A DNA stretch of 43,465 nucleotides from a virus (IMGVR_UViG_2563366823_000003); one strand, 5' to 3'. Shown: positions 1,068 through 42,966, counted from the first letter of the stretch. Program-made: numbers and translations. The notes: generated by a model from the letters alone, not told the origin.

Positions 1068-1098
1068 AAAAAGAGACCGAACACGATTCCTGTTTTCG
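1068..1098. repeat. attL: left copy of the att core (3'-terminal segment of sdsR)
   Basis: aaaaagagaccgaacacgattcctgttttcg repeats 42864-42898 with 2 mismatches and one indel; host-type end ggtctcttttt retained on the minus strand. Confidence 0.7.
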
Positions 1099-1397
1099 TC
1101 AACAAACAACAAAATCTTTTAGAATTAATGTGTTAAATAAATTTATGCTCATCTTTTAATCCCTAACACATACCATTACATATTAATACATTCAATTAGT
1201 TACCATTTTTTTCGAGTTTTTTAGAGAAATTTTCGGGAATATTTCAGATCAATCCATGCATACACAAGCAATTCCTGTATTGAATAATTCCGTAGCAATT
1301 ATGTAAAATCACCTCCGGCTGATTTTCATTCAAACTCGCGCTATCGAACGTCCATCAGCCAGCCGTGGCACGTTCTTGCATACGACGTGCTACGGTT

Positions 1398-1527
1398 TCA
1401 TTTATCTCCGACCGGAAACTTCTTATACAAAGTCGATACGCCAACATCATAGATGATCGCCACCTTCTGGCGAGAAACTCCTGATGCAATTAGTCGTCCA
1501 GCCTGCGCCCATTGCTCCGGCGTGAGA
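1398..1527 (-). pseudogene. pin: 3' remnant of a Pin/Gin/Hin-family DNA invertase (C-terminal HTH only)
   Basis: Minus-strand translation LTPEQWAQAGRLIASGVSRQKVAIIYDVGVSTLYKKFPVGDK* matches the recalled C-terminus of E. coli Pin; no N-terminal resolvase domain upstream. Confidence 0.7.
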
Positions 1528-1610
1528 GTAAGACAGTAAACTGTAGAAAAATCTCATTAAACTTAATATAATAATAAGTTACAGAATTATCTTTACTGAA
1601 TAATAGATAT

Positions 1611-2156
1611 ATGAACATTAGTGAACTTAAAAACTGTATACACTATGAAGTAATAGGTTATAAACGCCCTTTCTCCTGGCGAAAAGCAATTGTTCGCGCA
1701 ATAAAACACAGAAGATTACGTTATTTATTTTGGTGGCGCATAGCAAAATATCTTTTTGATAAAGGCGGATACCGGCGAAAGGTTGCAGGAAAAATAGAAC
1801 GCTTCATTCTTGATAAATACAATGTAACCGTTCCCTTAACTGTAAATATTGGTAAAGGGTTCGACATATCTTATCTCAATGGCGTTGTTATCGGTCACAA
1901 AGTTACAATAGGTGAAAATTGTTCAATTAAGCCTGGAGTAACTATTGGACTTCGCGGTGAATTTAATGATATGGATATTGTCATAGGAAATAATGTAACC
2001 ATCGGCTGTAACGCCACCATCCTTGGTGGCAAAGTGCATATAGGGAATAATGTAAAAATAGGAGCTCATGCATTAGTACTGCATGACATTCCTGATGACT
2101 CCACATTCATTACTAAATTTCACTCTGAAATTATTTATAACTCATCTCACACATAA
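1611..2156 (+). CDS. hexapeptide-repeat (left-handed beta-helix) acyl/acetyltransferase; low-GC cargo gene
   Basis: 181 aa with repeated [LIV]G-x-x-x-x hexapeptide units (VIGHKVTIGENCSIKPGVTIG, VIGNNVTIGCNATILGGKVHIGNNVKIG); AT-rich relative to flanking phage genes. Confidence 0.75.
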   Translation: MNISELKNCIHYEVIGYKRPFSWRKAIVRAIKHRRLRYLFWWRIAKYLFDKGGYRRKVAGKIERFILDKYNVTVPLTVNIGKGFDISYLNGVVIGHKVTIGENCSIKPGVTIGLRGEFNDMDIVIGNNVTIGCNATILGGKVHIGNNVKIGAHALVLHDIPDDSTFITKFHSEIIYNSSHT

Positions 2157-2238
2157 TTCCGTTTAATCACAGCTCTGGCCATACGATATCCGGGGCTGTA
2201 TTTATATCAATCCGACTCACTAATACCCGGTATTTTTT

Positions 2239-2739
2239 CTAGGAAGATAGCATCGAGACTTCCTCATCAGTTGCCATTTCAAAATTAACAGCATCCTGCA
2301 GAATTGTTATGTTATCAGTCGCTTCCTGGATTAATCTTGCCTTTTTCTCTTCCGCCTCCCGGATCCGGAACAGTTTTTCTGCTTCTGCATCTTTCACCCA
2401 AGCTGTGCCGTTCCACTTCTGAAACTCCCCATCCGGCGACAACCAGGTGACATTTTCCGGTAATGGGCCAAGTTCAGAAATAAATAACGCGTCCCCTGAT
2501 GCCACGTCATAAACCGTTTTACCCCGATGGTCTTCAACGAGATGCCACGATGCCTCATCACTGTTGAAAACAGCCACAAAGCCAGCCGGAATATCTGGCG
2601 GTGCAATATCGGTACTGTTTGCAGGCAGACCTGTATGAGGCGGAATATATGCGTCACCTTCACCAATAAATTCATTAGTTCCGGCCAGCAGGTTATAAAT
2701 TTTTATGGTCCGTGCTTGTTCACTCATTCTGAATGCCAT
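2239..2739 (-). CDS. tfa: tail fibre assembly protein (lambda Tfa family)
   Basis: N-terminus [57 protein letters not shown] closely matches recalled lambda Tfa; ATG overlaps the stop of the upstream fibre gene. Confidence 0.85.
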
Positions 2740-3836
2740 TATGCGAGCCTCACAATATAGTTAAATGCGATGTTTTTGACGGTGTTTTCCGCGTTACCAG
2801 CAGCGTTAACGGTGATGGTGTGTCCATGTGAACCAATCGCAACAGAGTGCGTATGTGCACCAATAGCGACAGTATGTGTATGCGCCCCAGCACTTGCTGC
2901 AGTACCTGATACTGAGTGGGTATGCGCGCCAGCAGAATTCGTTGCACCTAAGTGAGTTTGAGCAGAGTTCGACGAAGCTACTCTACCGGAGCTAACGTTA
3001 GCATTATCCCCCTGAGATATCGGATGCGTATGTGCACCTGCTGAAGCTGCTGTTCCGCTAACGCTATGGGTATGCGCACCAGTGTTATTCGTAGATTTAG
3101 TTCCATAATCAAACGATGATGTGTTTTTTGTCCCTAAATCTGTATTGGAAGCACTGGCGCTGTGGGTGTGCGATTTAATGCCGTCCTGTTCCTGGCTAAG
3201 AACATCACGTCCACTTGCAGGCTTACCTTTGATTGTCCAGCCACGCATATCAGGGATCACGCCTGACGGATAAGCGGCTGCAAGTTTCGGGTATGCAGAC
3301 TTGTCAAAAGTCTGTCCCTGCATCAGAGCATAACCAGATGGAACTGTATCTGATGGCCACGGGATCGGGGCACCTACAGGAAAGGTCGAATTATTTTCCA
3401 AACCAAGATATTTAAGGACATCAGCAACAGAGCTTTTTGCCAAAATATCTCGCCCAACCTGTGTCAGGTCAGCCAAATTAGCGGTATCTTGATTGGTAAA
3501 ATACGGTAATTTGTTTTCGGATGCTGAAAGATTAGCAAGTGCGGTAAGTATGGCATTAATTCTCTGATAGTTCTTATCTAATGCAGACGACATTTTTGCG
3601 ATAAATCCGGCCTGATCGCCATCGTCCTGTACATCCAGTCCACTTTCATTTGCTGTATATTGTGCCATTGCAGATGCAATAAAGCTGGCCTGCCGAATAA
3701 CCTTATTGACTTGCGCACTGGATGCTTTCCCTGCTGTAAATCCGGATAAAAGCGCAGGTAATGCTTCCCATTCCTCCTGCGACATAACATTGGCATTCCG
3801 ATCAGTTGCAAACGCTTTAAAGTCATTTTTCGCCAT
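2739..3836 (-). CDS. side tail fibre protein with His-rich C-terminal repeats (GAHTHS x5)
   Basis: 365-aa ORF immediately upstream of tfa; repeated [15 protein letters not shown] units; start placed at ATG 3836 overlapping the upstream stop (TGATG). Confidence 0.8.
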
Positions 3837-4516
3837 CAGAGTAATACTCCCCATGCCCCTACATCAAAACCACTGATAAATTCGTTATCCATATCAAAAC
3901 CAAAAAATTTTGAGCCTTCCGATGGAGTTTCCACCGAAGGTGTTTCAATGCCACCCGCCCACACCCCGGCGGCTTTTACTGTGAGATATCCCTGTTTAAT
4001 TGCAGCAATTAACTCACGCGATACATCTGAAATATCAGTATCAGGAAAGACCCAGACCGATATCGTCATGTCCTGGTTATCGACAATCTGCATTCGCAGC
4101 CCGGATCCTGCTGTCGCCGCGTCAAGAATTGCTGGAAGCGAATCATTCCGTCCGTCCCAGTTATTAATCGCAATCTTCGCTTTAAGGATGGCACGATAAG
4201 TTTCATCGCTGAGGTACATGTATCCGGAATCAGGATCGTATGGTCCCTGCCATACACCCTGATCATATCCAAGCCCGTCGGTATCCCAGCTGAAATAGAC
4301 ACCTGAGATAGGCTGGCTGACAACACGGCTACGTCCGATCCACAATCCCAGAATGTCAAGTTGCACACCAACCGCAGAGTCAATATCAAATGCAGTAATC
4401 AGCCCTCTGGTGGCAGCCGCAACATCAATAAGCGGCCGGGTCATCAGATCAACATGTGCAAGAAATTTAGGTTTGGTGGCGTGATAGTTTGTGATTAGTT
4501 CGGTGTATTTGCTCAT
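3836..4516 (-). CDS. putative tail/baseplate protein (Mu gp48-like position, YmfQ-like)
   Basis: 226-aa ORF between the baseplate J-like gene and the tail fibre gene, overlapping both; family assignment from recall only. Confidence 0.5.
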
Positions 4517-5712
4517 GACTCCACCGTTATAACGATATTTTCCGGGGTACAGGACGCAGATTCGTTATATCTGATATCAATGTTTGATGACGACAAAGCC
4601 CCCGGGGATTTCCCAATCGTCAGTTCCTGAATATCGTAATAGCGTGCATTCCCGCCACTCGCCACGCCAAGATTCGCCGGTGAGTAAATGCGACTTAAAA
4701 GGACTGAATCACCAATCGTCAGACTATTGATATAGTCGGAAATAGCCTGCTGGATCTGCTGCCCTATCTGTGAGGTATAACCCGTAAAAACTTTTAATTT
4801 AATCCGGGCATAAACAGGCACATCACTGGAACGCGAGAATTTGATTACATGGGGATTGCCGTATTTATCCGGAACCGTAACGGATGTTGTACCGTGAGTG
4901 GCTGTCCCCTGGCCTTTATTCCCTCTGATAGCCTGAGCAATATCCGTCACATCACCGCCATCCACAATTACAGCAACAGAGTGTGGCGGTAACCCGTTAC
5001 CGTCCTCCGAACCAGTATCGTTTTCATAGAGTTTGTGGCGGGTTACACCGGTAACATTAGAAACAGCACCATCCAGTGCTTCAAATGGGGTTATTGATGG
5101 CAACGCAACACTTTGCGACTGGCGGATACGTAACTCCGCGTCAGTTTCTGCCGGAGTGCCCACAGTAGCCGCAGCAGGATTAGTTACCGAAACCCAGCCA
5201 CGGGTTGGCGTATTAATTTCAGTGATAGTTCCAGCCAGCGCCGCCACTGCACCACTGACGGAACATGTTGCGGTCACCATCACTGTACCATCCACGCCGA
5301 CCACCACTGAAGCAGGCAAACGCCATATCACATTATTACTGTCTTTCACGCTGCCATTAATGATGGTTGTTCCGGCAGTTCCTGTAAGAAGCAAATCAAC
5401 CGTAGAATTCGTCGCGCCTTTACGTGAAATACCATTTATTTTCACGTTACTGGTCAGTGCGGCCCCATAGCCGGTTGCTGGTGAAAAACAGTTGTAGACA
5501 GTTATCGCCATATTATTGGCATCATGAATCGCCAGCGCTATCAGAGCCACCATCTGACCGTCTTTACTGTCCGGTTCGAGGTAGGCATCACTACCATAAA
5601 TCTGCTGAAAATAGCTAATCAGGGTGCTGAGTATCGTCTGATAATCAGGCGCACTGATCCCCTCCGCGGTTACCTTTGCAGATAAACCGAGAGAATCAAG
5701 GTTCAGAGCCAT
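4513..5712 (-). CDS. baseplate J-like protein (Mu gp47 / P2 gpJ family)
   Basis: 399-aa ORF in conserved baseplate gene order; size and position typical of baseplate J. Confidence 0.6.
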   Translation of the reverse strand: MALNLDSLGLSAKVTAEGISAPDYQTILSTLISYFQQIYGSDAYLEPDSKDGQMVALIALAIHDANNMAITVYNCFSPATGYGAALTSNVKINGISRKGATNSTVDLLLTGTAGTTIINGSVKDSNNVIWRLPASVVVGVDGTVMVTATCSVSGAVAALAGTITEINTPTRGWVSVTNPAAATVGTPAETDAELRIRQSQSVALPSITPFEALDGAVSNVTGVTRHKLYENDTGSEDGNGLPPHSVAVIVDGGDVTDIAQAIRGNKGQGTATHGTTSVTVPDKYGNPHVIKFSRSSDVPVYARIKLKVFTGYTSQIGQQIQQAISDYINSLTIGDSVLLSRIYSPANLGVASGGNARYYDIQELTIGKSPGALSSSNIDIRYNESASCTPENIVITVES

Positions 5713-6065
5713 TACGCCTCCGATGTAACAGTCGTTATTCCATAGAGAGTGTCGATTTCAGCGGAAAACATGACACGTCGGGTCGTGGTATCCACCGTCG
5801 TATTGAAAGAGAGGATTGATTTAACGCCCCGCGTTTCGAGGATGCGCTTACGGATCGCCAGGTTGTAGGTTTCCGGCTTCTGCTTACCGAGCACGGACTG
5901 GATCCACGGAGTCCCTTCGGTGGTGTCGAGAAACCATTGCCCATACCACAATTCGAATCGCGTTTTCACAGCCTGTGCTACGGCCTCAGGCGAGTTAATC
6001 AGCCAGGTGTCATCACCGCTGCCAAAGGTGTAATCGCCATCGGCGTCTTCACGTCTGTATCGCAT
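5712..6065 (-). CDS. putative baseplate protein (Mu gp46-like position)
   Basis: 117-aa ORF translationally coupled to flanking baseplate genes. Confidence 0.45.
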   Translation of the reverse strand: MRYRREDADGDYTFGSGDDTWLINSPEAVAQAVKTRFELWYGQWFLDTTEGTPWIQSVLGKQKPETYNLAIRKRILETRGVKSILSFNTTVDTTTRRVMFSAEIDTLYGITTVTSEA

Positions 6066-6817
6066 CAGTTTACCCCATCGGTATTGCTTCCACCGCGCTG
6101 AACACCACCATGAGTGTGCGTATCATCGATTGGCTTGCCGTTAGCCTTCACGCTCCCCAAAAACTCAACAGCACCAGTGATTTTTGAAGCCACACCAGAA
6201 ACCACAGACCCCACCATGCCCCCCAACCAGGTTAACAGGCCATGAATGGTTACTTTCTCAGAAAAATCAGCCAGAGGGGCAACCACATCAAGACCACCCG
6301 GAGCGACAATTTTAATTTTCCCGGTATCAGGATTAAGCTCAAAATAGGTGCTGCCATCGTCACTACGCAACTGTGTGGCACTGGTATTAATACCGCTAAT
6401 CTTCCTAGCCTGCGACTGGGGACCGACAATACAAAACGCATCCGATAAATCATGCATTCTGTCATCAACAGGCTCCTGTATCCCGCCGTTCTGCCACCAG
6501 AAATCAATACAACGATCGGCAAAAACGACAAGACACTCATCCCCAGCTTTTACCGGAAAAGTCAACGTACAGCCTCCGCCGCGCGGGAATACCACTGGCA
6601 CATCCACCAGCAATGGGTAATTTTTGGTAATGCGGTTACCGTAGTTATCCTTTTCAACCGAACGGATAGCTGGCTGCACAACCGCCGTCACCGCGTCAGG
6701 ATCGAATGACTGAATAATGCCAGGCAAGGCGACGCGGATCTGGTTCTTTGTTGTTTCCCGCTCGGACTTGAATGTTTCGGCAAGGTCACCGCTACGAGTC
6801 TGGTCTGATATGGCCAT
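6065..6817 (-). CDS. putative baseplate spike/hub protein (Mu gp45-like position)
   Basis: ORF with AGGAG 8 nt upstream of ATG 6817; the track start at 6850 is less likely. Confidence 0.45.
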   Translation of the reverse strand: MAISDQTRSGDLAETFKSERETTKNQIRVALPGIIQSFDPDAVTAVVQPAIRSVEKDNYGNRITKNYPLLVDVPVVFPRGGGCTLTFPVKAGDECLVVFADRCIDFWWQNGGIQEPVDDRMHDLSDAFCIVGPQSQARKISGINTSATQLRSDDGSTYFELNPDTGKIKIVAPGGLDVVAPLADFSEKVTIHGLLTWLGGMVGSVVSGVASKITGAVEFLGSVKANGKPIDDTHTHGGVQRGGSNTDGVN

Positions 6818-6830
6818 TTGATAAACTCCT

Positions 6831-6858
6831 GAAAACAAAAAACCCGCCAAGTGGCGGG
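6831..6858 (-). terminator. rho-independent terminator closing the inserted moron
   Basis: Perfect 7-bp stem acccgcc/ggcgggt with 4-nt loop, followed on the minus strand by TTTTTTGTTTT. Confidence 0.6.
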
Positions 6859-6878
6859 TCTACAGGAACAACTCTAAG

Positions 6879-7050
6879 TTTATTTTTTCTGTTTAAAATT
6901 GTCCAACTCAGGTTCTTTAACGCTTTCTGTCATGTAATCCAATCCATCAAAAGGTACTTCAAGCATTATACTGCTTTCATAATCAGCCATGGATTGCTCT
7001 GCTTGCGTTGGCTTACTTTGCTGTGAGTTGTCATTATTTGATGTTGTCAT
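6879..7050 (-). CDS. small acidic hypothetical protein (56 aa), distal gene of the moron
   Basis: ORF MTTSNNDNSQQSKPTQAEQSMADYESSIMLEVPFDGLDYMTESVKEPELDNFKQKK, below the track size cutoff; starts 3 nt after the upstream stop and is followed by the terminator. Confidence 0.35.
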
Positions 7051-7053
7051 CAA

Positions 7054-7608
7054 CTATGCCTTATTTATCAAAAGAAAAGTAACCGATAATATGAAAAAAC
7101 CGAAAGATAACGCAATTCCTTCAAAAAGATAACGAGCATAAACTGCCTTTTCTTTATGAAGACTTTCGATCAATTCAACAGCTTTACCATACTGAAACAT
7201 ATGGTATCTAAGCGTTTTAATTTTATCACCGTAAAGTAAAAAATCATGCTCTTCTTTTCGCTTATGAATAGGCATTTTTGGTATATCTTTCAGTCCCCAA
7301 GTACGCCATAGGAAAAAAAAGCACATAACAATACAAACAAAGCACAGATATGCACAAAGTATAGATAATGTTAAAAACCAATTACTCTTTAGCCCACTTT
7401 TGAAATCAACAGTCCCAAATACAGCCAGTAGAGCAGAGGTTTCTACAGCTAAAATAGCAAGAAGGTAGTTAACTTTGTCCTCAAGACGACGATATGTTGA
7501 TTTTGCTTCCTCATATCTATCTTTATAATATGACGAAATAAAATCAGCGCCTATAGTCTCAATTGCCTTTTGTTCTTCTGTTGTATCTATTGGCGAACGC
7601 TTGCTCAT
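7054..7608 (-). CDS. hypothetical integral membrane protein (2-3 predicted TM helices); low-GC moron
   Basis: 184 aa with hydrophobic stretches LLAILAVETSALLAVFG, FLTLSILCAYLCFVCIVMCFFFLW and IALSFGFFILSVTFLLI; markedly AT-rich compared with flanking baseplate genes. Confidence 0.6.
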   Translation of the reverse strand: MSKRSPIDTTEEQKAIETIGADFISSYYKDRYEEAKSTYRRLEDKVNYLLAILAVETSALLAVFGTVDFKSGLKSNWFLTLSILCAYLCFVCIVMCFFFLWRTWGLKDIPKMPIHKRKEEHDFLLYGDKIKTLRYHMFQYGKAVELIESLHKEKAVYARYLFEGIALSFGFFILSVTFLLINKA

Positions 7609-7615
7609 TTCTTAA

Positions 7616-7963
7616 TCAACCAACAACTTTCTTACACGGGAAAGAGCCAATAATTTTCGGAGCATCCATGCTGTTCTGCAACAACTGGACGTTCAGGAAA
7701 CGCGTTTTAGTGCCCGGTCGATGGATATACTCGAACCCATAATTGTTGCCATCTTTGGCAGGCATCAGCTCCATTTTGATCTGCATGCCTGTACCGTCTT
7801 TACCCAACATTTTTACTTTTTGGGACGTTACTGTTTCGCCATTGATTTTAAATAATGAGTCAGGGATCGCATCCATACGAAAGTTGCCGCATTGCATCGT
7901 TATGGTGTTTGCACTTACACCAACAGACACTAACGCCAGCAATGAAAATATCCATCGTTTCAT
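7616..7963 (-). CDS. hypothetical secreted/periplasmic protein (115 aa) with Sec signal peptide
   Basis: Start at ATG 7963 (GAGAGGA upstream) gives MKRWIFSLLALVSVGVSA signal peptide; two Cys in the mature part; the track's longer N-terminus is unlikely. Confidence 0.55.
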   Translation of the reverse strand: MKRWIFSLLALVSVGVSANTITMQCGNFRMDAIPDSLFKINGETVTSQKVKMLGKDGTGMQIKMELMPAKDGNNYGFEYIHRPGTKTRFLNVQLLQNSMDAPKIIGSFPCKKVVG

Positions 7964-7965
7964 TT

Positions 7966-9030
7966 CTATAATCCTCTCTGCAAAGCAGTGCTGGATGGCA
8001 TATCCTGCGCACCGCGCGCTTCGCACATCATATCCATGTACCACGCCTGGCCCCTTGTGTCGCCAGTGTACATAATCCCGCGCACAATATAAACGCCATC
8101 CGTTGCGATGCTGGCAGGCTGCGATGTGGTGCCGCTTAGCGTGATATTTCCATCCGTGTTCTGGTCGGTGATCTGACCACCAGCCATCGCAATATCGTTG
8201 TTCGACAACGCGGTACGATACACTGAAACCTGATCCAGCTGAATGAGTCCGTTAACCCGGATGTTCGGATTAATAAGCGCGCGGACGTTTACGCCGTTAC
8301 CGATAGTCTGCTGCGGCATGCCAATAAGCCCGGTAGCGCTGTTGAGCACAATCGCTTCATGAACATATTCGTTATTCGCCACCATCTGGCGCTGGCCGTC
8401 CACGAATTGCCATGTTGCGCCACATTGCCCGGCTACGTTATCCATTAGATGCCGCGTCATGCCAAAGAGTACCCGCCCCCGGGGGAATACAGTAGCAGGC
8501 ATTTCAGGCGTCAGGCCTTCGGTCGCGCCTTTGGCTTCGAAGTCTTTCATCAGCGCACGGCTCACATCAGCGACCGTGTAACCGGCAGCCAGCGTCTGTG
8601 AGGTTATACTGGTGGCAAAAGCCAGATCTGTATCGGCTGCCTGAATCAGGACGTAGGTATCAACCGGACTGTCTTTTCCTGTGACCGAGTAGCGAATTTC
8701 ACCGCTGAAAATCAGTCCGTAGTTGCGGCCATCACTCTGGCCCACGTCCGCCGCGTCAACTTCCCGCACTGTCCCGACGTCGCTTGCCGACACCTCCGGC
8801 GCGATACCGTCGTAACCCGCAATCAGACGCACTTTCGAAAACTCCTGCCCGGTGATTCGGTTCACAGTATCTGCCGAGAGGTTATAAATTTTGATAGTCC
8901 CTACCCGGGACGCGCTGCTGATGTTGAACCAGTCGATCGTAAAGGTGACTTTAAAATCACTTAGCTCAATTCCCTGACCGTTCCCGTCCACAAGCTGCAG
9001 CTCGAAATGTCTCATCCAGTTCTGTGACAT
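7966..9030 (-). CDS. putative baseplate hub protein (Mu gp44-like position)
   Basis: ORF in the tail module; ATG 9030 preceded by GGAG, immediately after the upstream stop. Confidence 0.5.
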   Translation of the reverse strand: MSQNWMRHFELQLVDGNGQGIELSDFKVTFTIDWFNISSASRVGTIKIYNLSADTVNRITGQEFSKVRLIAGYDGIAPEVSASDVGTVREVDAADVGQSDGRNYGLIFSGEIRYSVTGKDSPVDTYVLIQAADTDLAFATSITSQTLAAGYTVADVSRALMKDFEAKGATEGLTPEMPATVFPRGRVLFGMTRHLMDNVAGQCGATWQFVDGQRQMVANNEYVHEAIVLNSATGLIGMPQQTIGNGVNVRALINPNIRVNGLIQLDQVSVYRTALSNNDIAMAGGQITDQNTDGNITLSGTTSQPASIATDGVYIVRGIMYTGDTRGQAWYMDMMCEARGAQDMPSSTALQRGL

Positions 9031-9032
9031 GC

Positions 9033-9335
9033 TTACTCCGTTGATACCAGTAAATGACTGCAACCGCCCAAGTCAGTTTTCGTGGGATAATCCTGTGTGT
9101 TGTCATCGCAGACCACCACCAGCTTAAAACCAAGCCCCATACAGGCGTACTGCGCCAGCAAGTCAGCACCAGTGACGAGAGGAATACCGGAGATTACCGG
9201 CTCCCCTCTGTCGTTCTGCAGGTCCATAATCCAGTAAAGATCGCGCCATATGATGCTAATCCGCCAGGTGACACCACCCAGGACGATGCTGAACTGCTGA
9301 TTGTCCGCTGTCAGCGGAATTTCCTGAATTGTCAT
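9033..9335 (-). CDS. hypothetical tail protein
   Basis: 100-aa ORF coupled between tail genes. Confidence 0.4.
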   Translation of the reverse strand: MTIQEIPLTADNQQFSIVLGGVTWRISIIWRDLYWIMDLQNDRGEPVISGIPLVTGADLLAQYACMGLGFKLVVVCDDNTQDYPTKTDLGGCSHLLVSTE

Positions 9336-12540: not shown

Positions 12541-12543
12541 GTA

Positions 12544-27379: not shown

Positions 27380-27535
27380 TTACTCCTCAGGTTCGTAAGC
27401 TGTGAAGACAGCGACCTCCGTCTGGCCGGTTCGGATTCGTACCTCGCAGAGGTCTTTCCTCGTTACCAGTGCCGTCACTATGACGGTTAAACAGATGACG
27501 ATCAGGGCGATTAACATCGCCTTTTGCTGCTTCAT
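27380..27535 (-). CDS. hokD: Hok/Gef-family membrane toxin (type I toxin-antitoxin)
   Basis: 51 aa MKQQKAMLIALIVICLTVIVTALVTRKDLCEVRIRTGQTEVAVFTAYEPEE matches recalled HokD/RelF; hairpin-rich 3' UTR and in-frame upstream extension. Confidence 0.8.
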   Translation of the reverse strand: MKQQKAMLIALIVICLTVIVTALVTRKDLCEVRIRTGQTEVAVFTAYEPEE

Positions 27536-27677
27536 AGCCTGCTTCTCCTTGCCTTTCGGCACGTAAGAGGCTAACCTACATGTGCAAAGCATGAAATTGG
27601 CCTCAGATTAATGTTAAGCGTCTTGCCGGACGCGTAATGTTAACTGGGGCTTTTCTCTATCTGCCTTTGGTGTTCGT

Positions 27678-27717
27678 GCCCGAGGCAGATAGCCTCAAGC
27701 ACCCGCCGTGATTCTAC
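27678..27717. repeat. left copy of a ~40-bp imperfect direct repeat flanking the AT-rich cargo island
   Basis: gcccgaggcagatagcctcaagcacccgccgtgattctac versus gcctgagacagacaacctcaagcacccgcagcaattctac at 29698-29737, ~82% identity. Confidence 0.6.
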
Positions 27718-27942: not shown

Positions 27943-28971
27943 TTACGCCTTAATAGGGTTAATCACATTTCCGCTATCCGTACCATAGTATTTTTTTGTA
28001 GTCATGCCTTGTTTATAATAATCATTTAACAGTTTGAGAAAGTTTCTTCCTTGCCTCTCATCTTCTATGACTAATTTACCATGCTCATTGGTCTTAAACT
28101 CTTCGTTCTGAAACATTTTTAACACATCATTCATAGCTTGAACATCATTCTTTTCCAGAGCCGTATGGTTACCTTTCTCAGCGATATGAGTGAGAATTTT
28201 TCTCAGTGATGGCTTATGAAGAATAGCTTGTTCAATAACATCTAAACCTTCAATAAGATCAAGTTCTTTAATTGTATTTAATGTTTTTTGTGCAGCTTCT
28301 GTAAACTCAACCTCCAAGCCTACAATAGCCTCAAAACTTTTCTTATGAAATACATAAAATTGATCTTTTATATAAATACAATCGATTTTGTCATCAAAAT
28401 TGACTGCGCTGCCATCAAATGATCTTAACTCTTTATCTGTTTTATCAAACAAAGCGAATACGCGCTGAGTCATATTTTGTGGTTCATTTGTTGTGACTTT
28501 CCCCCTGCTGATTTTTCGGAAAGAATAAGTGACGTCAGCCCCCTTTTGGACTTTAATACAATAGGCCCACAAATCATTCTGAACCTCAGCAAGAGAGGTA
28601 AGTACAACTGGTTTATCATTCTTTATATCGTTATTAATAACTTTTGAAAACGATATCGCGTTATTCATAGCATAGGCATAAATCTTATTGTCAATATCAT
28701 CATCAATAACAGTATACTTTTTCATCACAATATCATCTTTCGAAGCATGAGAAATAATCTGGTTTGATAAAGTATACTTAAAAAATTTAGCAATATCTGG
28801 AGCGATAGGAGCTTTAATGATTTTAAAATCGAATTTATCAACAACTCTTGCGGTTCTACTCATACCCGCTTTAAGATGTCTAGTAATGAAATACAACGAT
28901 ATTTTCGCCGCATCATCATCCTTAAGTTGCTCAGCATACTCTAATAATTCTTCAAGCTTTAACATTTTCAT
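27943..28971 (-). CDS. 342-aa soluble hypothetical protein; candidate defence effector (KwaB-like?)
   Basis: Very AT-rich ORF; its ATG overlaps the stop of the upstream membrane ORF (ATGA); Kiwa assignment is hypothesis only. Confidence 0.55.
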   Translation of the reverse strand: MKMLKLEELLEYAEQLKDDDAAKISLYFITRHLKAGMSRTARVVDKFDFKIIKAPIAPDIAKFFKYTLSNQIISHASKDDIVMKKYTVIDDDIDNKIYAYAMNNAISFSKVINNDIKNDKPVVLTSLAEVQNDLWAYCIKVQKGADVTYSFRKISRGKVTTNEPQNMTQRVFALFDKTDKELRSFDGSAVNFDDKIDCIYIKDQFYVFHKKSFEAIVGLEVEFTEAAQKTLNTIKELDLIEGLDVIEQAILHKPSLRKILTHIAEKGNHTALEKNDVQAMNDVLKMFQNEEFKTNEHGKLVIEDERQGRNFLKLLNDYYKQGMTTKKYYGTDSGNVINPIKA

Positions 28972-29583
28972 TCCTTATGGGATTCAGCATAAAAAAGTTT
29001 TGGGCCCACGTCCTCAACATCAAGAAGATCATCTTCCTCCAAATACTTGGATTTAGTCAAAACCATACCAGTGCGTTTTTTGTCGCTTTCTAAATCCAAA
29101 TATGTAACTTGATATAAAGTATAATTAATACTTATTGTAGGATTTATAAGTATCATGCTTGAATTAATATATATTAAAGCCGTTACCGTTAACAATATTG
29201 CTATAGGTATAACATTAGTTAAATGTGGATAGGTCCTGAAATACAAACGGAATTATATATGTAAAAAGATAGCTTATTGATTCATTGTTTTTATTTTCAA
29301 TATCTATAACTCTTACAGTTCTACCACTAGTGGCGCATCGACGTTTTATATTTTTTAAAAAAATTGTTAATCCTACAATACCAAATAATGATAATACACC
29401 AATGACACTGACCGCGCCAAAGTATTTAAAGAAAATAGTTAATGATTCAACACTTATACCTTTCCAATTTAAATAGCTTCTATAAGTATACAATTGCACA
29501 AAACACATGATAAAGAATAGGGGAAGGTATGACACTATAAATAGCGAAACTCTAGCACCTAAATGTAGTTTATTTACTCTCAT
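28968..29583 (-). CDS. multi-pass membrane protein (~205 aa, 4 TM) apparently split by a frameshift; KwaA-like?
   Basis: Two overlapping ORFs (29215-29583 and 28968-29252) each with two hydrophobic helices; second frame has no ATG at its head (TTG). Confidence 0.45.
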
Positions 29584-35238: not shown

Positions 35239-35268
35239 TGATCTTGCTATCACAGTAATATGCCAATC

Positions 35269-35293
35269 AGCCCGCTATCAGCGGGCTTTTTTG
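35269..35293 (+). terminator. rho-independent terminator after the repressor gene
   Basis: Stem agcccgc/gcgggct with 5-nt loop followed by TTTTTT. Confidence 0.65.
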
Positions 35294-35543
35294 TACCATC
35301 ATCATATGACACCCACCACAAAACACATTTCGTGTTGACACAAGAAAACGCATTGTGTTTAATAAGCATATCCAAACAACGCCCCACCAGAGAACGGCAG
35401 GACAATACCTCGAGTTATCCAGCCACTGAACAGGGCTAAGTAGCCAGCCTGAGGCATACGAACATGACGGCAGTTGTTGATTGATACAAAGCGCAGTAGA
35501 TAAAACGTTCCGCCACCCGGCGTTAAGGGGAAATGAGGTCAAC

Positions 35544-35699
35544 ATGGATACTATCGATCTTGGCAACAACGAATCTCTGGTATGTGGCGTGTTTCCCAAT
35601 CAGGACGGCACATTCACCGCCATGACATATACCAAAAGCAAAACGTTTAAAACCGAAGCTGGCGCACGTCGTTGGTTGGGAAGACATTCAGGTGAGTAA
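35544..35699 (+). CDS. small hypothetical protein (51 aa)
   Basis: ATG-initiated ORF MDTIDLGNNESLV... downstream of operator-like palindromes. Confidence 0.4.
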   Translation: MDTIDLGNNESLVCGVFPNQDGTFTAMTYTKSKTFKTEAGARRWLGRHSGE

Positions 35700-35700
35700 A

Positions 35701-35904
35701 ATGAACGAGACAGAATTAAAACACGTTATCGCTCTACTCCTAGAAGATGCAAAACGCCTCCAGCAACTGGAGCCAAATGCAGGCACTGGGGCACGCATCT
35801 GGCTGGCTAAAGAAGCGCTGGAATCTGGCGATTATGATAGCGAAGAAGCCTTCTACAAAGCAGAAGGCCGTGCAGGATATTCACCGGGTCTTGGCGGGGT
35901 ATAA
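35701..35904 (+). CDS. small hypothetical protein (67 aa)
   Basis: ATG 35701 with AGGTGAG upstream; the track start at 35692 is GTG. Confidence 0.4.
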   Translation: MNETELKHVIALLLEDAKRLQQLEPNAGTGARIWLAKEALESGDYDSEEAFYKAEGRAGYSPGLGGV

Positions 35905-35994
35905 ATACCATGCGCATTGACTGAATTCGCAAACAAAAACAGACGCGCGATATCTGGATAGTCGGTCTGCATAGTCAGATATCTGGCTGCGAAT

Positions 35995-36171
35995 TTAATA
36001 AATATCACCGCCCTTTTCGGAAACATAAGTTCCGTCCGGGAGTTGATTATACGAACCATCTCCATGGGGGATCGTTCTCCTGAATCCTAGTGAGAGCATA
36101 TATTTATGAAGCCCTTCGTAATCCTCTGGCTCAGCATTATATAGTTCTACTCTGGCGAGATACGTTGGCAT
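35995..36171 (-). CDS. small hypothetical protein (~58 aa) in the sieB-equivalent position
   Basis: Minus-strand ORF MPTYLARVELYNAEPEDYEGLHKYM... with AAGGAA upstream of ATG 36171; only opposite-strand gene in the early-left operon. Confidence 0.4.
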   Translation of the reverse strand: MPTYLARVELYNAEPEDYEGLHKYMLSLGFRRTIPHGDGSYNQLPDGTYVSEKGGDIY

Positions 36172-36571
36172 ATTCATTTCCTTACTGGTTGTGTGAGAAC
36201 TCCAGTAAAGATACCACCAAAGCCCGGAGGTGGTGAAATAAAACCGGGCACAACACGAAGGCGCATTTCTGGTATCCATAAAGAGTCGGTCTTGTCTGTT
36301 AAATTTAAATGGTGGGAGTGCGCCTCCGGTTGTAAATAACGACATTGCTTTGTGTAGTCTTTGGCGGCATCAGTTCTACTCCGTGGCTGCCCTGCCGCCC
36401 CTTTTTAAAGTGAATTTTGTGATGCGGTGAATGCGGCTAAGCGCACGCGGAACAGTTAAAAGCATCAGTGTTATGGGTGGATTATCCGGCGTTAATTGTT
36501 AACTGGTTAACGTCACCTGGAGGCACCAGGCACCGCATCGACAAAATTCATTTGTAAAAATGGAGATAATT

Positions 36572-36793
36572 ATGATTGCTCATCACTTCGGAACTGATGA
36601 AATACCACGTCAGTGTGTGACCCCTGGCGATTATGTTCTTCATGAAGGTCGGACATATATCGCCTCGGCAAACAATATTAAAAAGCGAAAACTTTATATT
36701 CGTAGCCTGACTACAAAAACATGCATTTCTGACTGCATGATTAGAGTCTTCCTCGGTCGTGATGGTTTACCTGTAAAGGCGGAGTCATGGTAA
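36572..36793 (+). CDS. KilR-like small protein (73 aa)
   Basis: ATG 36572 with GGAGA upstream; size and position match Rac kilR (identity not verified). Confidence 0.45.
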
Positions 36794-36963
36794 TGACTAA
36801 GAAAATAAAATGTGCTTATCACCTTTGCAATAAAGAAATTGAAGAAAGCAAAATCATTACAAGACCACTTCATTTCATGCGTGGAGTTATACCAACGACG
36901 GAAATGAAAAAATATTGTAGTGAAATCTGTGCCGAAAAAAACCAGATGGCACACGAACTTTAA
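36794..36963 (+). CDS. small Cys-rich protein (56 aa), YdaE-like
   Basis: [12 protein letters not shown]...KYCSEICAEKNQMAHEL; below track cutoff; between kilR-like and racC-like genes. Confidence 0.5.
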
Positions 36964-37037
36964 TTAACTGACTATCCGAAACTGAATTTATGCCAGCAAT
37001 GGCAGGGATTCGCTCAACCTTAATTAAGGAGAAAAAC

Positions 37038-37313
37038 ATGATTACCAGTTATGAAGCCACTGTTGTTACTACTGATGACATTGTTCACGAAGTCAGCCTG
37101 GAAGGAAAACGTATTGGCTACGTGATTAAGACAGAAAATAAAGAAACCCCATTCACTGTGGTTGATATCGACGGTCCATCAGGCAACGTTAAAACACTTA
37201 ACGATGGTGTTAAAAAAATGTGTCTGGTGCACATAGGAAAGAATCTGCCCGCAGAAAAAAAAGCCGAATTTCTGGCAACTCTGATTGCAATGAAATTAAA
37301 AGGTGAAATCTGA
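37038..37313 (+). CDS. RacC-like protein (91 aa)
   Basis: ATG 37038 with AAGGAG 7 nt upstream; size and position upstream of recE match Rac racC. Confidence 0.5.
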   Translation: MITSYEATVVTTDDIVHEVSLEGKRIGYVIKTENKETPFTVVDIDGPSGNVKTLNDGVKKMCLVHIGKNLPAEKKAEFLATLIAMKLKGEI

Positions 37314-37412
37314 AAAAAAGAAAGCCTGCACACTGTGCAGGCCTGAGTGAAGAACCTGGGACATTTATTCATCACTCGCAGTAATTTTAATCTGAGTTGA
37401 GGTTAAAAAACA

Positions 37413-40067
37413 ATGAGCACCGATAAACAAGTTTACCCACTGTATTACGAAGCAAAAAATGACAAAGTAAGAAAACGTCTCGGTATTAAAGGCGGTTTCT
37501 ACTGGGCTGAAGCGAAAAAATTATCCATTGCCATCTCCCGTGGTGCTGTTGCGATTGACGATGCTGGCTACGATGAAGATGACTTTAAAAAACCTGTTCG
37601 CGTCAATTTGCCCGTTGTTGATGACCTTCCACCAGAAGGCGTATTTGATACGGAATTCTGCAACCGTTACGAAAAAGGCGGGGAAGATGGCATCACAATG
37701 GTATTTGTCGCGCCCTCACCCTCTGCGCAGGACAAACCAGCCAGCACTGACAATACCAATGTTAATGGCGAAGACATGACGGAGATTGAGGAAAATATGC
37801 TACTCCCGATTTCCGGTCAGGAGCTGCCCATTCGCTGGCTTGCTCAACACGGCAGCGAAAAACCGGTAACGCACGTTTCACGCGACGAACTCCAGGCATT
37901 ACACATTGCACGGGCTGAAGAACTACCAGCTGTTACTGCCCTGGCTGTTTCCCACAAAACCAGCCTGCTCGACCCGCTGGAAATTCGCGATCTCCATAAA
38001 CTGGTGCGTGATACTGACAAAGTTTTCCCTAATCCAGGCAATTCAAGCCTGGGGCTGATGACTGCTTTTTTCGAAGCATACCTGGACGCAGACTACACCG
38101 ATCGCGGTCTGCTGACAAAAGAGTGGATGAAAGGAAATCGTGTTTCACGCATCACGCGCACGGCTTCCGGTGCTAATGCTGGCGGCGGGAACCTCACCGA
38201 TCGCGGCGAAGGTTTCGTTCACGATCTGACGTCACTGGCGCGCGACGTAGCCACTGGCGTACTGGCTCGTTCAATGGACGTGGACATTTATAACCTTCAT
38301 CCGGCACACGCTAAACGTGTCGAGGAAATTATCGCTGAAAATAAACCGCCCTTTTCTGTTTTCCACGACAAATTCATCACCATGCCTGGCGGGCTGGATT
38401 ATTCCCGCGCCATCGTGGTTGCTTCCGTAAAAGAAGCACCAATTGGGATCGAGGTCATCCCCGCACACGTCACTGAATATCTGAACAAAGTACTGACTGA
38501 AACCGATCATGCCAACCCTGATCCGGAAATTGTGGATATTGCCTGCGGTCGCTCCTCTGCCCCAATGCCGCAGCGTGTAACAGAAGAAGAAAAACAGGAT
38601 GATGAAGAAAAACCGCAACCATCTTGCGCAATGGCAGATGAACAGGCAACGGCTGAAACAGTGGAACCGGATGCAACTGAACATCATCAGGACACGCAGC
38701 CGCTGGATGCTCAGTCACAGGTAAATTCTGTTGATACGAAATATCAGAAACTGCGGGCAGAACTCCATGAAGCCCGGAAAAACATTCCGCCCCAAAATCC
38801 TGTCGATGCAGACAAATTACTGGCTGCCTCTCGCGGAGAATTTGTTGAAGGGATTAGCGACCCGAATGATCCGAAATGGGTTAAGGGGATCCAGACCCGC
38901 GATTCTGTGTACCAGCATCAGCCAGAAACGGAACAGAACGACCTAAAATCGGAACAAAACGGCCAAAATGCGCGACAAAATGAACCAGAAGCGCAACAGG
39001 AACTGGAAAAAGTCTGCCATGCCTGCGGTCAGTCTGATGGAGATAACTGCCCTGATTGTGGCGCGGTGATGGGCGACATCACGTATCAGGAAACCTTTAA
39101 TGAAGAAAATCTGGATGAATCTCAGGAAAAAGATCCGGAGGAAATGGAAGGCCCTGAACATCCGCACAATGAGAATGCTGGCAGCGATCCGCATCGCGAT
39201 TGCAGTGATGAAACTGGCGAAGTCGCAGATCCCGTAATCGCAGGAGACATAGAGCCTGGTATTTATTACGGAATTTCGAATGAGAATTACCACGCGGGTC
39301 CCGGTGTCAGTAAGTCTCAGCTCGACGACATTGCTGATACTCCGGCGCTGTATTTGTGGCGTAAAAATGCCCCAGTGGACACCACAAAGACAAAAACGCT
39401 CGATTTAGGAACCGCTTTCCACTGCCGTGTACTTGAACCGGAAGAATTCAGTAACCGCTTTATCGTGGCACCTGAATTTAACCGCCGTACAACCGCCGGA
39501 AAAGAAGAAGAGAAAGCGTTTCTGATGGAATGCGCAAGCACAGGAAAAACGGTTATCACTGCCGAAGAAGGCCGGAAAATTGAACTCATGTATCAGAGCG
39601 TTATGGCTTTGCCGCTGGGTCAATGGCTTGTTGAAAGCGCCGGACACGCTGAATCATCAATTTACTGGGAAGATCCTGAAACAGGAATTTTGTGTCGGTG
39701 CCGTCCGGACAAAATTATCCCTGAATTTCACTGGATCATGGACGTGAAAACCACAGCGGATATTCAACGATTCAAAACCGCTTATTACGACTACCGCTAT
39801 CACGTTCAGGATGCATTCTACAGTGATGGTTATGAAGCACAGTTTGGAGTGCAGCCAACTTTCGTTTTTCTGGTTGCCAGCACAACTATTGAATGCGGAC
39901 GTTATCCGGTTGAAATTTTCATGATGGGCGAAGAAGCAAAACTGGCAGGCCAGCAGGAATATCACCGCAATCTGAGGACCCTGGCTGACTGCCTGAATAC
40001 CGATGAATGGCCAGCTATTAAAACGTTATCACTGCCCCGCTGGGCTAAGGAGTATGCAAATGACTAA
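37413..40067 (+). CDS. recE: exonuclease VIII (RecE)
   Basis: 884 aa; C-terminal nuclease domain [22 protein letters not shown]...DVKTTADIQ...YHVQDAFY; immediately upstream of recT with ATGA overlap. Confidence 0.85.
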
Positions 40068-40869
40068 GCAACCACCTATCGCAAAAGCCGATCTGCAAAA
40101 AACCCAGGGAAACCGTGCACCAGCAGCAGTAAAAAATAACGACGTGATCAGCTTTATTAATCAGCCATCAATGAAAGAGCAACTGGCAGCAGCTCTCCCA
40201 CGCCATATGACGGCTGAACGAATGATACGTATCGCCACCACAGAAATTCGTAAGGTTCCGGCGCTAGGAAACTGTGACACCATGAGTTTTGTCAGTGCGA
40301 TCGTTCAGTGTTCACAGCTCGGCCTTGAGCCAGGTAGCGCCCTCGGCCACGCATATTTACTGCCTTTTGGTAATAAAAACGAAAAGAGCGGTAAAAAGAA
40401 CGTTCAGCTAATCATTGGTTATCGCGGCATGATTGATCTGGCTCGCCGTTCTGGTCAAATCGCCAGCCTGTCAGCCCGTGTTGTCCGTGAAGGTGACGAG
40501 TTTAGTTTTGAATTTGGCCTTGATGAAAAGTTAATACACCGCCCGGGAGAAAACGAAGATGCAGCAGTGACCCACGTCTATGCTGTCGCAAGACTGAAAG
40601 ACGGAGGGACTCAGTTTGAAGTTATGACGCGCAAACAGATTGAGCTGGTGCGCAGCCAGAGTAAGGCTGGTAATAACGGGCCGTGGGTAACTCACTGGGA
40701 AGAAATGGCAAAAAAAACGGCTATTCGTCGCCTGTTTAAATACCTGCCTGTCTCAATTGAAATCCAGCGTGCAGTATCAATGGATGAAAAGGAACCACTG
40801 ACAATCGATCCGGCGGACTCCTCTGTATTAACCGGGGAATACAGTGTAATCGATAATTCAGAAGAATAA
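40060..40869 (+). CDS. recT: single-strand annealing recombinase RecT
   Basis: 269 aa from [14 protein letters not shown]; matches recalled E. coli RecT. Confidence 0.9.
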
Positions 40870-40913
40870 TTCAGCCTGGCGGTGTAATGCACCGCCAACG
40901 TGAGACAGTTTTT

Positions 40914-41120
40914 ATGACAAAAATTATGAGATATGACGATGTTAAACCATGTCCGTTTTGTGGTTGTCCATCTGTTACGGTGAAAGCAATTTCAGGATAT
41001 TACCGGGCAAAATGCAACGGATGCGAATCCCGAACTGGCTATGGTGGAAGTGAAAAAGAAGCGCTCGAAAGATGGAATAAACGAACCACTGAAAATATTA
41101 ATGGAGGCGTTCATGTATAA
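40914..41120 (+). CDS. ralR: restriction alleviation protein Lar/RalR
   Basis: MTKIMRYDDVKPCPFCGCPSVTVKAISGYYRAKCNGCESRTGYGGSEKEALERWNKRT matches recalled Lar. Confidence 0.7.
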   Translation: MTKIMRYDDVKPCPFCGCPSVTVKAISGYYRAKCNGCESRTGYGGSEKEALERWNKRTTENINGGVHV

Positions 41121-41301
41121 AATTACTGCTACAATTGAAAAGGAAGGTGGCACTCCTACTAACTGGACAAGATATTCAAAATCTAAACTAACGAAATCAG
41201 AATGCGAAAAAATGCTCTCAGGGAAAAAAGAAGCAGGCGTTTCCAGAGAGCAGAAAGTAAAACTGATAAATTTTAATTGCGAGAAACTTCTGTCATCGTG
41301 A
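41113..41301 (+). CDS. small hypothetical protein (62 aa)
   Basis: ATG 41113 overlapping the lar stop; the track start upstream is non-ATG. Confidence 0.4.
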   Translation: MYKITATIEKEGGTPTNWTRYSKSKLTKSECEKMLSGKKEAGVSREQKVKLINFNCEKLLSS

Positions 41302-41407
41302 GTTACATCATATCCAAATTAGAACTTCATAGCTGATTATTAAAAATCAACCACACCCGCCAGTATTCTGTATATTTACTGGCGGTCATATCGTAAGAGG
41401 TATGGCA

Positions 41408-41689
41408 ATGAATCTTGTGACACTCAAAACTTGGGGAAGACTCAGATATCCGGATAACCCACCATCAATATCAACACTGAGACGATGGGCAAGGAATGGA
41501 AACATTTATCCTGCACCTGAACTACACGGGAGGAGTTACAGGGTGGTTCCGGAGGCTTTCTATATCAACCCAAATAAGGTTGATACCGATATAACACACC
41601 ACCAGCCTAATGGGCGACAAGGGAGAGACAGTCCGTTAATGGAGAAGTTAAAACATGCAGCGGAAAAAATACGATCCCAATTTGCCTAG
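41408..41689 (+). CDS. xis: excisionase (Xis-like)
   Basis: Small basic ORF overlapping the integrase start; AAGAGG 8 nt upstream of ATG 41408. Confidence 0.6.
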   Translation: MNLVTLKTWGRLRYPDNPPSISTLRRWARNGNIYPAPELHGRSYRVVPEAFYINPNKVDTDITHHQPNGRQGRDSPLMEKLKHAAEKIRSQFA

Positions 41690-42731
41690 AAACTTAACAT
41701 ATCGAAGGAGAGACAAAGCATATTACTGGCGCAACCCTCTCACGAAAGAAGAATTTACACTAGGTAAAATTTCAAGAAGAGATGCAGTAGCGCAGGCAAT
41801 TGAAGCAAATCATTATATATACAAAAACTACTCTCCTGCTGCCTTAATTGAAAAGCTGAAAGGGTTCGACTCATTTACTATGGCAGACTGGATTGAACGT
41901 TACAAAACGATTCTTATAAGGAGAAAAGTGTCCAGAAATACTTATAAAATTCGGGTAAATCAACTGGAGACAATAAAAGAAAAATTGGGAGGGATTTTAC
42001 TGACAGAAATAACCACTCGCCATATTGCTGAGTTTCTTGATTTGTGGATTGAAGGAGGGAAAAACACGATGGCAGGATCAATGCGTTCTGTGTTATCTGA
42101 TATGTTCCGCGAGGCCATTGTTGAAGGACGTATATCTCAAAATCCAGTAACGCCAACAAGAGCACCGAAAATAGTAGTTACAAGAGAACGACTGAAACTA
42201 AAGACATACAACTGCATCAGGGAGGCAGCAGATCAACTTCCGGCATGGTTCCCATTAGCTATGGATTTAGCCCTTGTAACAGGACAACGTCGCGAAGACA
42301 TAACGAATATGCGGTTCAGTGATATTTATGATGATCGTCTCCACATCAGGCAAATTAAGACAGGAATGATGATTGCTATCCCCCTGTCACTCAGACTTCC
42401 TGTCGCTGGTCTACGGCTTGGTACAGTAGTTGAACGCTGCCGCCTGGTAAGCCGGGGAGATTATCTAATCAGTGCCGGGATTAGAAAAAACAGCCCTGAC
42501 GGCAGCATTCACCCGGATGGCCTGACAAAAAAATTTGTCGCAGCCAGAAAATTAACAGGTATCCAGTTCAGTGAAAACCCACCAACTTTTCACGAGATCA
42601 GAAGTCTGGCTGGACGATTGTACAAAGAAACATGTGGAGAAGAATTTGCTCAGCGTCTACTTGGCCACACATCGGAGAAGACAACAAAAATGTATCTTGA
42701 TGAGAGAGAAAAAACGTACTTACTGCTCTGA
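41655..42731 (+). CDS. int: tyrosine integrase (lambda Int family)
   Basis: 358 aa; collinear with recalled lambda Int ([40 protein letters not shown] catalytic region); GGAGAAG upstream. Confidence 0.9.
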
Positions 42732-42863
42732 TTTTAACGTAAATGGATTGTTAAATGCATTTTGGTTGTGATATAACCAAAAAAGACCGGAATACAGAAA
42801 TTCGAGTAAATTTCGGGGAATTTCGGGGGAGACGTTTGCAACTGATTGATTTTAAATACAATT

Positions 42864-42898
42864 AAAAAAAGACCGAATACGATTCCTGTATTCGGTCC
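42864..42898. repeat. attR: right copy of the att core inside the sdsR terminator stem
   Basis: aaaaaaagaccgaatacgattcctgtattcggtcc matches 1068-1098. Confidence 0.7.
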
Positions 42899-42966
42899 AG
42901 GGAAATGGCTCTTGGGAGAGAGCCGTGCGCTAAAAGTTGGCATTAATGCAGGCTTAGTTGCCTTGC
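42864..42966 (-). ncRNA. sdsR: SdsR (RyeB) small RNA; antisense RyeA/SraC overlaps on the plus strand
   Basis: Minus-strand gcaaggcaactaagcctgcattaatgccaacttttagcgcacggctctctcccaagagccatttccctggaccgaatacaggaatcgtattcggtcttttttt matches recalled SdsR incl. terminator. Confidence 0.8.

Follow-up and report, generated by a model that had tools for sequence, protein, structure and literature searches.

In the viral sequence IMGVR_UViG_2563366823_000003, the pphA-ryeA/sdsR-yebY locus of Escherichia coli is split by an insert of ~41.8 kb. We refer to the whole of this sequence, 43,465 nucleotides in length, as the window. The gene pphA lies to the left of the insertion and yebY to the right, with the left end of the window corresponding to yebW'-pphA, as judged by identical DNA in other genomes and by translation. 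We have good confidence that the insert is a temperate phage of ~41.8 kb, integrated site-specifically in the Rho-independent terminator of the small RNA (sRNA) gene sdsR, also known as ryeB, and that this has consequences for SdsR, for the overlapping antisense RNA RyeA, and for pphA. The features that define the locus, including the left and right attachment sites (attL and attR), are listed below.

277-933, minus strand: pphA, protein Ser/Thr phosphatase (annotation of identical DNA elsewhere, translation)
1066-1098, no strand: attL, made of the host-type sdsR 3' end (1068-1093) and the phage P' arm from 1094
1094-42878, ~41.8 kb: prophage body (Pfam, PGAP annotation of strain CD45, phage matches)
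42862-42895, no strand: attR, made of the phage P arm through 42878 and the host sdsR body
42864-42967, minus strand: sdsR (ryeB), reconstituted (Rfam RF00111, terminator scan, folds, K-12 coordinates)
43124-43465, minus strand: yebY, conserved gene upstream of sdsR (annotation, translation)

The attachment sites and strand exchange

The insert is bounded by an imperfect repeat (1066-1098 and 42862-42895) whose two copies lie 41,796 bp apart and are identical at 29 of 33 positions, with one indel in addition. The longest unbroken identity is a stretch of 11 bp, ACGATTCCTGT, found at 1083-1093 and again at 42879-42889. A first-pass annotation of the window had proposed that the attachment (att) core duplicates the last ~30 nt of sdsR. 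Homology does extend over ~33 nt, but it includes four differences and the indel, and the identical core is just 11 bp. A four-way alignment of attL, attR and the empty sites of K-12 MG1655 and FDAARGOS_497, the latter having a left flank identical to that of the window, defines each junction base by base. Here attL is host-type through 1093 and becomes phage-type at 1094, with T for A, a 1-nt deletion and then unrelated sequence; the host-type character earlier assigned to all of 1068-1098 is thus retained for 1068-1093 and withdrawn for 1094-1098. At the other end, the phage-type sequence of attR runs to 42878, with A in place of G at 42870 and T in place of C at 42878, and host-type sequence begins at 42890. 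Since both junctions are chimeric, strand exchange is placed within the 11 bp that they share.

When the host halves are joined, the empty site results, and the phage halves together give an attP that reads ...AAAAAAAGACCGAAT-ACGATTCCTGT-TTTCGTCAAC.... This same attP is present in one piece in the phage record PP818812.1, 146 bp downstream of a gene for a 358-aa integrase, as well as in several IMG/VR contigs, which independently confirms that the repeat is an att pair and not a chance resemblance. Empty-site alignment, the rebuilt attB and the one-piece attP therefore agree in placing the prophage inside the sdsR 3' end, as the first-pass annotation had it, and relative to the unlysogenised pphA-sdsR-yebY locus of K-12 and FDAARGOS_497 the insertion falls within RyeA. 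The attL chimera also occurs in strain CD45 and in 38 IMG/VR contigs, and the attR junction is common to 228 E. coli genomes and is also found in 72 IMG/VR and related arms.

In terms of the sdsR transcript, the exchange segment (1083-1093) corresponds to the positions 16-26 nt from the 3' end at 1068, and the homology covers the last ~31 nt. The segment contains the 7-nt loop of the sdsR terminator, GATTCCT, flanked by perfect 10-bp inverted repeats that form the stem arms. It is through such a symmetric stem-loop that a structured RNA gene supplies the core site for a tyrosine integrase. The attP core thus mimics the last ~33 nt of sdsR and underwent exchange within ACGATTCCTGT, with the loop GATTCCT probably serving as a 7-bp overlap and the stem arms as putative inverted core-type integrase sites.

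SdsR, RyeA and pphA after integration

A full-length match to the Rfam sdsR model RF00111 is found at attR (42864-42963, minus strand, 118 bits). The last 15 nt of the rebuilt gene (42864-42878) are phage-derived, and its terminator stem-loop, at 42870-42898, is detected by terminator scan. By comparison with K-12, a U·G pair of the terminator stem is changed to U-A and the tail UCUCUUUUU to UCUUUUUUU, giving a longer U-tract, and the hairpin has a predicted energy of -15.8 kcal/mol, the same as that of K-12. The proposal that attR rebuilds the sdsR terminator from phage bases is borne out, with two substitutions and equal predicted stability. The phage-type T at the equivalent of 42878 (GACCGAAT, not GACCGAAC) also occurs in ~46 complete E. 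coli genomes with an empty attB, two of which (NZ_CP025849.1 and NZ_CP169224.1) were inspected. There it likewise turns the U·G pair of the SdsR terminator into U-A, and represents either a standing polymorphism or the footprint of a past integration and excision. At the opposite end of the gene, position 42967 differs from both K-12 and FDAARGOS_497. This base is nt 1 of the annotated sdsR, G to A in the RNA sense, and corresponds to position -1 relative to the sdsR start mapped by Choi et al. 2019 (PMC6610125).

In the K-12 RefSeq annotation, ryeA occupies 1923066-1923337 and sdsR 1923104-1923207, so that the ryeA start lies 38 nt outside the sdsR 3' end. The sigma-70 promoter of ryeA and the 272-nt RyeA were mapped experimentally by Choi et al. 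2019, and a -10 mutation at the mapped promoter was used to remove RyeA (PMC6610125). Transferred to the window through alignment, these coordinates give the following arrangement.

1017-1030, plus strand: native ryeA promoter, with the -10 TATGGT at 1017-1022, TGT before it and the RyeA +1 at 1030 (K-12 coordinates via alignment)
1030-1093, plus strand: orphaned RyeA 5' segment, nt 1-53 surely host and nt 54-64 in the shared segment, fused to phage DNA
42890 to ~43096, plus strand: ryeA body with its own terminator, nt 65 to ~271, now downstream of int and the phage arm (Rfam, K-12 annotation, alignment)

The RyeA +1 is 53 nt before the exchange segment, and the site is thus internal to ryeA. 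Two further statements of the first-pass annotation are supported here: K-12 annotation (38 nt) and published mapping (PMC6610125) agree that RyeA begins beyond the sdsR 3' end, and the transferred coordinates place its promoter and 5' segment (nt 1-53, up to 64) at attL, 41.8 kb from the body. With the promoter and nt 1-53 or 1-64 left at attL, the native 272-nt RyeA cannot be made, at the level of the DNA. Downstream of attL, the terminator scan predicted no terminator, and neither strand folded into a stable hairpin. The orphaned promoter should give transcripts that cross a remnant of the pin gene in antisense and then enter an acyltransferase open reading frame (ORF) in the sense direction, both described below. 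A hybrid terminator at attL, able to insulate pphA or to stop orphan RyeA, was considered and rejected on the grounds of the same scan and folds.

SdsR is an abundant, RpoS-dependent sRNA that represses tolC, mutS, yhcB and, in Salmonella, ompD, and it is toxic unless checked by RyeA (PMC6610125). Each of the two RNAs brings about degradation of the other, ryeA-promoter transcription interferes with the sdsR promoter (PsdsR), and pphA is transcribed mainly via read-through from PsdsR (PMC6610125). In the window, SdsR is rebuilt at attR and the ryeA promoter, together with the RyeA 5' end, is stranded at attL, reading into phage DNA. The convergent interference on sdsR would be relieved, and by analogy with Salmonella lysogens of phage ΦW104, for which such a shift has been reported, we infer less RyeA and more or earlier SdsR. 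Moreover, pphA would be cut off from PsdsR, its main promoter, now 41.8 kb away, a consequence that the first-pass annotation had not raised. With the RyeA/SdsR ratio changed and pphA silenced, lysogens could be altered in stationary-phase mutagenesis, in efflux and in their envelope stress responses. Among these lysogens are such pathogenic lineages as O26:H11 11368, O55:H7 and Shigella flexneri.

A severed RyeA need not be a lost RyeA, since transcription that starts in the phage arm, or runs on from int, could yield a chimeric form. The P arm, between the int stop codon and the core, contains three elements relevant to this question.

42769-42777, plus strand: TGaTATAAC, extended -10-like, a candidate replacement ryeA promoter read from the sequence, pointing into the ryeA body
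42808-42829, plus strand: tandem AAATTTCGGGG repeats, candidate integrase arm-type sites (from sequence; aaatttcgaggaatttcgagg in the diverged arm family)
42839-42851, minus strand: match (AATCAATCAGTTG) to the integration host factor (IHF) consensus (from sequence; the Salmonella-type arm keeps AATCAATGGGTTA)

The consensus for IHF is WATCAANNNNTTR. From the int stop codon to the core, several blocks are conserved between two diverged families of arm (E. coli-type and Salmonella-type). Both AAATTTCGGGG repeats and the WATCAANNNNTTR match are conserved in the two families, with binding at these sites being a prediction and the window-wide motif count not above chance. In particular, AATTTCGGGGA is not enriched across the window (20 found versus 15 ± 3.8 expected) and is noteworthy just as a tandem pair by the core. 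A partial second copy of the left half of the core (AAAAAAGACCG[G]AATAC) is also seen at 42779-42795, to be compared with 42865-42880, and lies 86 bp upstream of the core within a block conserved between the arm families. This copy may represent either an additional core-type integrase site or the relic of an older junction.

Conceivably, then, RyeA has been re-wired and not lost: an outward-facing P-arm promoter at 42769-42777 would start transcription near 42784 and produce a chimeric RyeA of ~313 nt covering all of SdsR. We place this at somewhat under an even chance. The TGaTATAAC block is nearly invariant across the two diverged arm families, and the neighbouring stretch, between it and an upstream conserved TGTTAAA, varies. 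The block is nevertheless missed by a sigma-70 scan, because the final T of the -10 is absent and the -35 is poor; its conservation may come from binding sites for Int, Xis or IHF; and the search pattern used forced part of the arm conservation. Because an IHF-consensus match accounts for the adjacent conserved block, conservation within the P arm was downgraded as evidence for a promoter, and is taken to reflect attP architecture generally. The predicted RyeA is ~41 nt longer than that of K-12. This may be set beside the report by Fröhlich et al. that, compared with E. coli, Shigella and Salmonella make an SraC (RyeA) that is extended by ~35 nt and peaks earlier in expression, its -10 box being displaced ~35 bp upstream (PMC3333887). 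One S. flexneri genome does have the same integrase gene and arm fused to sdsR; the comparison with the Shigella strain of Fröhlich et al. is suggestive only. Synthesis of a chimeric RyeA with a phage-derived 5' end, from either the 42769-42777 element or int read-through, is put forward as a tentative suggestion that is rather more apt to fail than to hold.

A second candidate for a phage ryeA promoter, TTTGCA-16-TACAAT (42835-42862), was dropped, as it is not conserved in the Salmonella-type arm and promoter-like hits are no commoner than in shuffled sequence. A still broader proposal, that the attP arm evolved to re-wire the locus, with a phage-controlled chimeric RyeA, interference on sdsR gone and pphA removed from the sigma-S sdsR promoter, we regard as unlikely. 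If true, lysogeny would reset a stationary-phase, toxin/antitoxin-like sRNA pair plus a stress phosphatase in ~4% of E. coli and in Shigella, and such re-wiring would explain the longer, earlier-peaking SraC of Shigella and Salmonella.

Several points weigh against the account given above, of a site-specific integration that alters SdsR, RyeA and pphA. The overlap is bounded only to 11 bp, with the 7-bp loop chosen by analogy with other tyrosine integrases. Conservation of TGaTATAAC, lying as it does near an IHF-like block, may mark protein-binding sites of attP and not a promoter, and the sigma-70-like site at 42835-42862 fails to persist in the diverged arm family. Finally, it is from the arrangement of the DNA and from published work on other strains that we infer, for this strain, the shift in RyeA and SdsR levels, the loss of pphA expression and the chimeric RyeA.

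Contents, integrity and frequency of the prophage

The integration module lies next to attR and consists of two overlapping genes.

41402-41689, plus strand: Xis excisionase (Pfam PF07825, E = 1e-13), the ORF overlapping the int start
41655-42731, plus strand: lambda-type tyrosine integrase, 358 aa, with arm-binding, central and catalytic domains, transcribed toward attR

Pfam matches to the integrase are PF00589 (E = 1e-16), PF22022 and PF09003 (E = 2e-6, above its cut-off). A search of genome contigs with this integrase found only two loci, one in S. flexneri and one in another E. coli, both 95% identical and at the same site. The early region is Rac-like, with recE, recT, ralR and the RalA antitoxin RNA, kil, cI/cro-like regulators and ydaUVW-type replication genes. 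Late functions are encoded on the minus strand by genes of myovirus type, comprising lysis genes, a PBSX-family TerL, portal, sheath and tube, baseplate J and tail fibres. Among the prophages of complete E. coli genomes, the closest, that of CD45 included, are integrated at the same site and show 96-98% identity across 84-88% of the late half. Based on ORFs, Pfam and the CD45 annotation, unbroken ORFs account for every module (integration, immunity, replication, lysis, packaging, head and tail), save for a truncated pin near attL.

1398-1526, minus strand: Pin/PinE tail-fibre invertase remnant, the C-terminal 42 codons plus stop (matches residues 142-184 of CD45 PinE)
1611-2156, plus strand: hexapeptide-repeat acyltransferase ORF, 35% GC, a moron (Pfam Hexapep; CysE/WcaB-like NCBIfam matches sub-threshold)

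The acyltransferase ORF, which replaces most of pin, has a promoter-like site of its own (1544-1572) and is downstream of, and codirectional with, the orphaned ryeA promoter. This truncation of pin, together with a split kwaA gene (see below) and mosaic differences from the closest relatives, might suggest a defective, fixed remnant in which the repeat is a decayed scar instead of a functional att pair. Such a history is improbable. The integrase, at 358 aa, is of free-phage length; xis and the genes for recombination, immunity, replication, lysis, terminase, head, tail and baseplate are uninterrupted; and both att sites are the exact chimera expected from one clean integration. Furthermore, a 141-bp probe with the exchange point at its centre finds an unbroken match in 5,191 of 5,426 complete E. 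coli genomes. The site being empty in 96% of E. coli, including one genome with an identical left flank, the insertion is judged to be recent. Overall, the prophage has the appearance of a recent acquisition that may be functional.

Prophages of this type are common in public E. coli genomes: 228 complete genomes, or ~4%, carry the int-attR junction (at least 80% coverage), O26:H11 11368 and O55:H7 strains being among them. A Shigella flexneri genome likewise has this integrase gene and arm fused to sdsR. The record PP818812.1, which supplied the one-piece attP, was deposited as 'Actinobacillus phage vB_Apl-pPE4', with A. pleuropneumoniae as the host, and shares ~93% identical DNA with this prophage. 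Given this level of identity, and an attP that targets the enterobacterial sdsR, the host attribution looks doubtful.

A Kiwa anti-phage gene pair occurs in the nin region (27943-29583, minus strand). KwaB is intact, at 342 aa (PADLOC E = 1e-159), and KwaA is represented by two overlapping ORFs, at 29215-29583 (profile positions 2-122) and 28968-29246 (positions 116-204), a split that is probably a frameshift or sequencing error. CD45, the closest relative, lacks a low-GC (35%) insert that lies at 6864-8001 within the baseplate module; the two minus-strand ORFs of this insert, 7054-7608 and 7616-8044, have no Pfam or NCBIfam match and show a weak PADLOC match to PycTM (E = 9e-4). Three Rfam-detected RNAs, sok, a DicF-like sRNA and RalA, are the usual cargo of Rac/Qin-like lambdoid prophages.

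27530-27704, minus strand: sok RNA (Rfam), with a hok-type ORF at 27380-27592
36349-36400, plus strand: DicF-like sRNA (Rfam)
41119-41297, minus strand: RalA, antitoxin RNA of RalR (Rfam)

The RyeA family model and insertions at the same site elsewhere

The Rfam model of SraC/RyeA, RF00101, has a core match at attR (42860-43004, plus strand) of 180 bits, against a gathering score of 37, and a sub-threshold match of 24.8 bits at attL. When the model is run on K-12, its 145 nt align to 1301-1445 of the locus, within a ryeA annotated at 1267-1538, and thus represent nt 35-179. A full match at attR does not, for this reason, contradict the severing of RyeA, nor does it test transcript integrity. 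That RyeA is unsevered, with a functional form encoded wholly on the attR side, might be argued from this full-length 145-nt match and from the ~150-nt, RNase III-processed SraC species in the literature (PMC3333887), but it is most improbable, and for the primary transcript is already refuted, in that the model is devoid of the RyeA 5' end and promoter, the promoter and start are mapped upstream, outside the sdsR 3' end, with a -10 mutation that removes RyeA (PMC6610125), and the ~150-nt species arises by processing of the long transcript. Over its first ~20 consensus positions (AauUAAAAAaAGaCCGaauac), RF00101 is closer to the phage-type arm of attR than to K-12, as reflected in scores of 180.0 and 175.1 bits, respectively. 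This suggests that the seed is dominated by loci with a phage- or island-derived left arm.

Insertion at this site has a precedent. According to summaries of Balbontín et al. 2008 (PMC7380047, PMC3333887, PMC3603311), foreign DNA has repeatedly inserted in Salmonella at the last 23 bp of ryeB, a stretch that lies within ryeA and is also where ΦW104 attaches, and lysogeny by ΦW104 modifies the 5' part of ryeA, lowers ryeA and raises ryeB (summarised in PMC7380047). As far as can be told from these summaries, the prophage described here resembles ΦW104 in having its att core in the sdsR/ryeB 3' end, internal to ryeA, and in the replacement of the ryeA 5' part, with sdsR reconstituted here too. 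It differs in that the host is E. coli, where the PsdsR-dependent pphA is directly downstream of sdsR, so that the effect extends to one more gene. Arms of the Salmonella type, joined to the same attP core, are found among phage and IMG/VR records, but the P arm in the window belongs to a distinct sequence family; one Salmonella phage with the same core, OK490361.1, has ~79% DNA identity across the int 3' end and arm. Pectobacterium ΦPCC21_1 is likewise found in the ryeAB locus (PMC3737339), and a Citrobacter island, Cfr111.52.RyeB, is catalogued under the RyeB name (PMC10111431). These two cases concern other genera and elements, and come without RNA-level analysis.

More generally, the arrangement resembles integration into the 3' ends of tRNA, tmRNA and sRNA genes, such as ryeE in E. 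coli, where the attP core copies the RNA 3' end and the gene is restored (PMC3603311). It is unlike other RNA-gene targets in that sdsR overlaps a second, antisense RNA gene. As a result of this overlap with ryeA, restoring SdsR necessarily truncates RyeA. Likeness to lambda is seen in an Int with an arm-binding N-terminal domain and a catalytic domain and in an adjacent Xis, and may extend to the candidate arm repeats and IHF match between arm and core. The core sequence and target differ, and the binding sites here are predictions only.

With the type of event, the att site and the effect on the sRNA pair already published for Salmonella in 2008, the window is an ordinary example of an established principle, so far as that work is represented in the summaries cited. 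What it adds is modest: a clean E. coli case with base-resolved E. coli-type junctions, the E. coli-specific prediction that pphA is uncoupled, and a candidate phage-supplied ryeA promoter. In the literature searched, no description was found of the E. coli case or of the consequence for pphA. One further observation concerns pphA itself, whose position is precisely that expected for the left end of an element inserted at this hot spot. PphA is similar to the phage lambda phosphatase (PMC6610125), and the sdsR 3' flank is variable among enterobacteria (PMC3333887). It might be speculated that pphA and the K-12 ryeA promoter are themselves relics of an older insertion.

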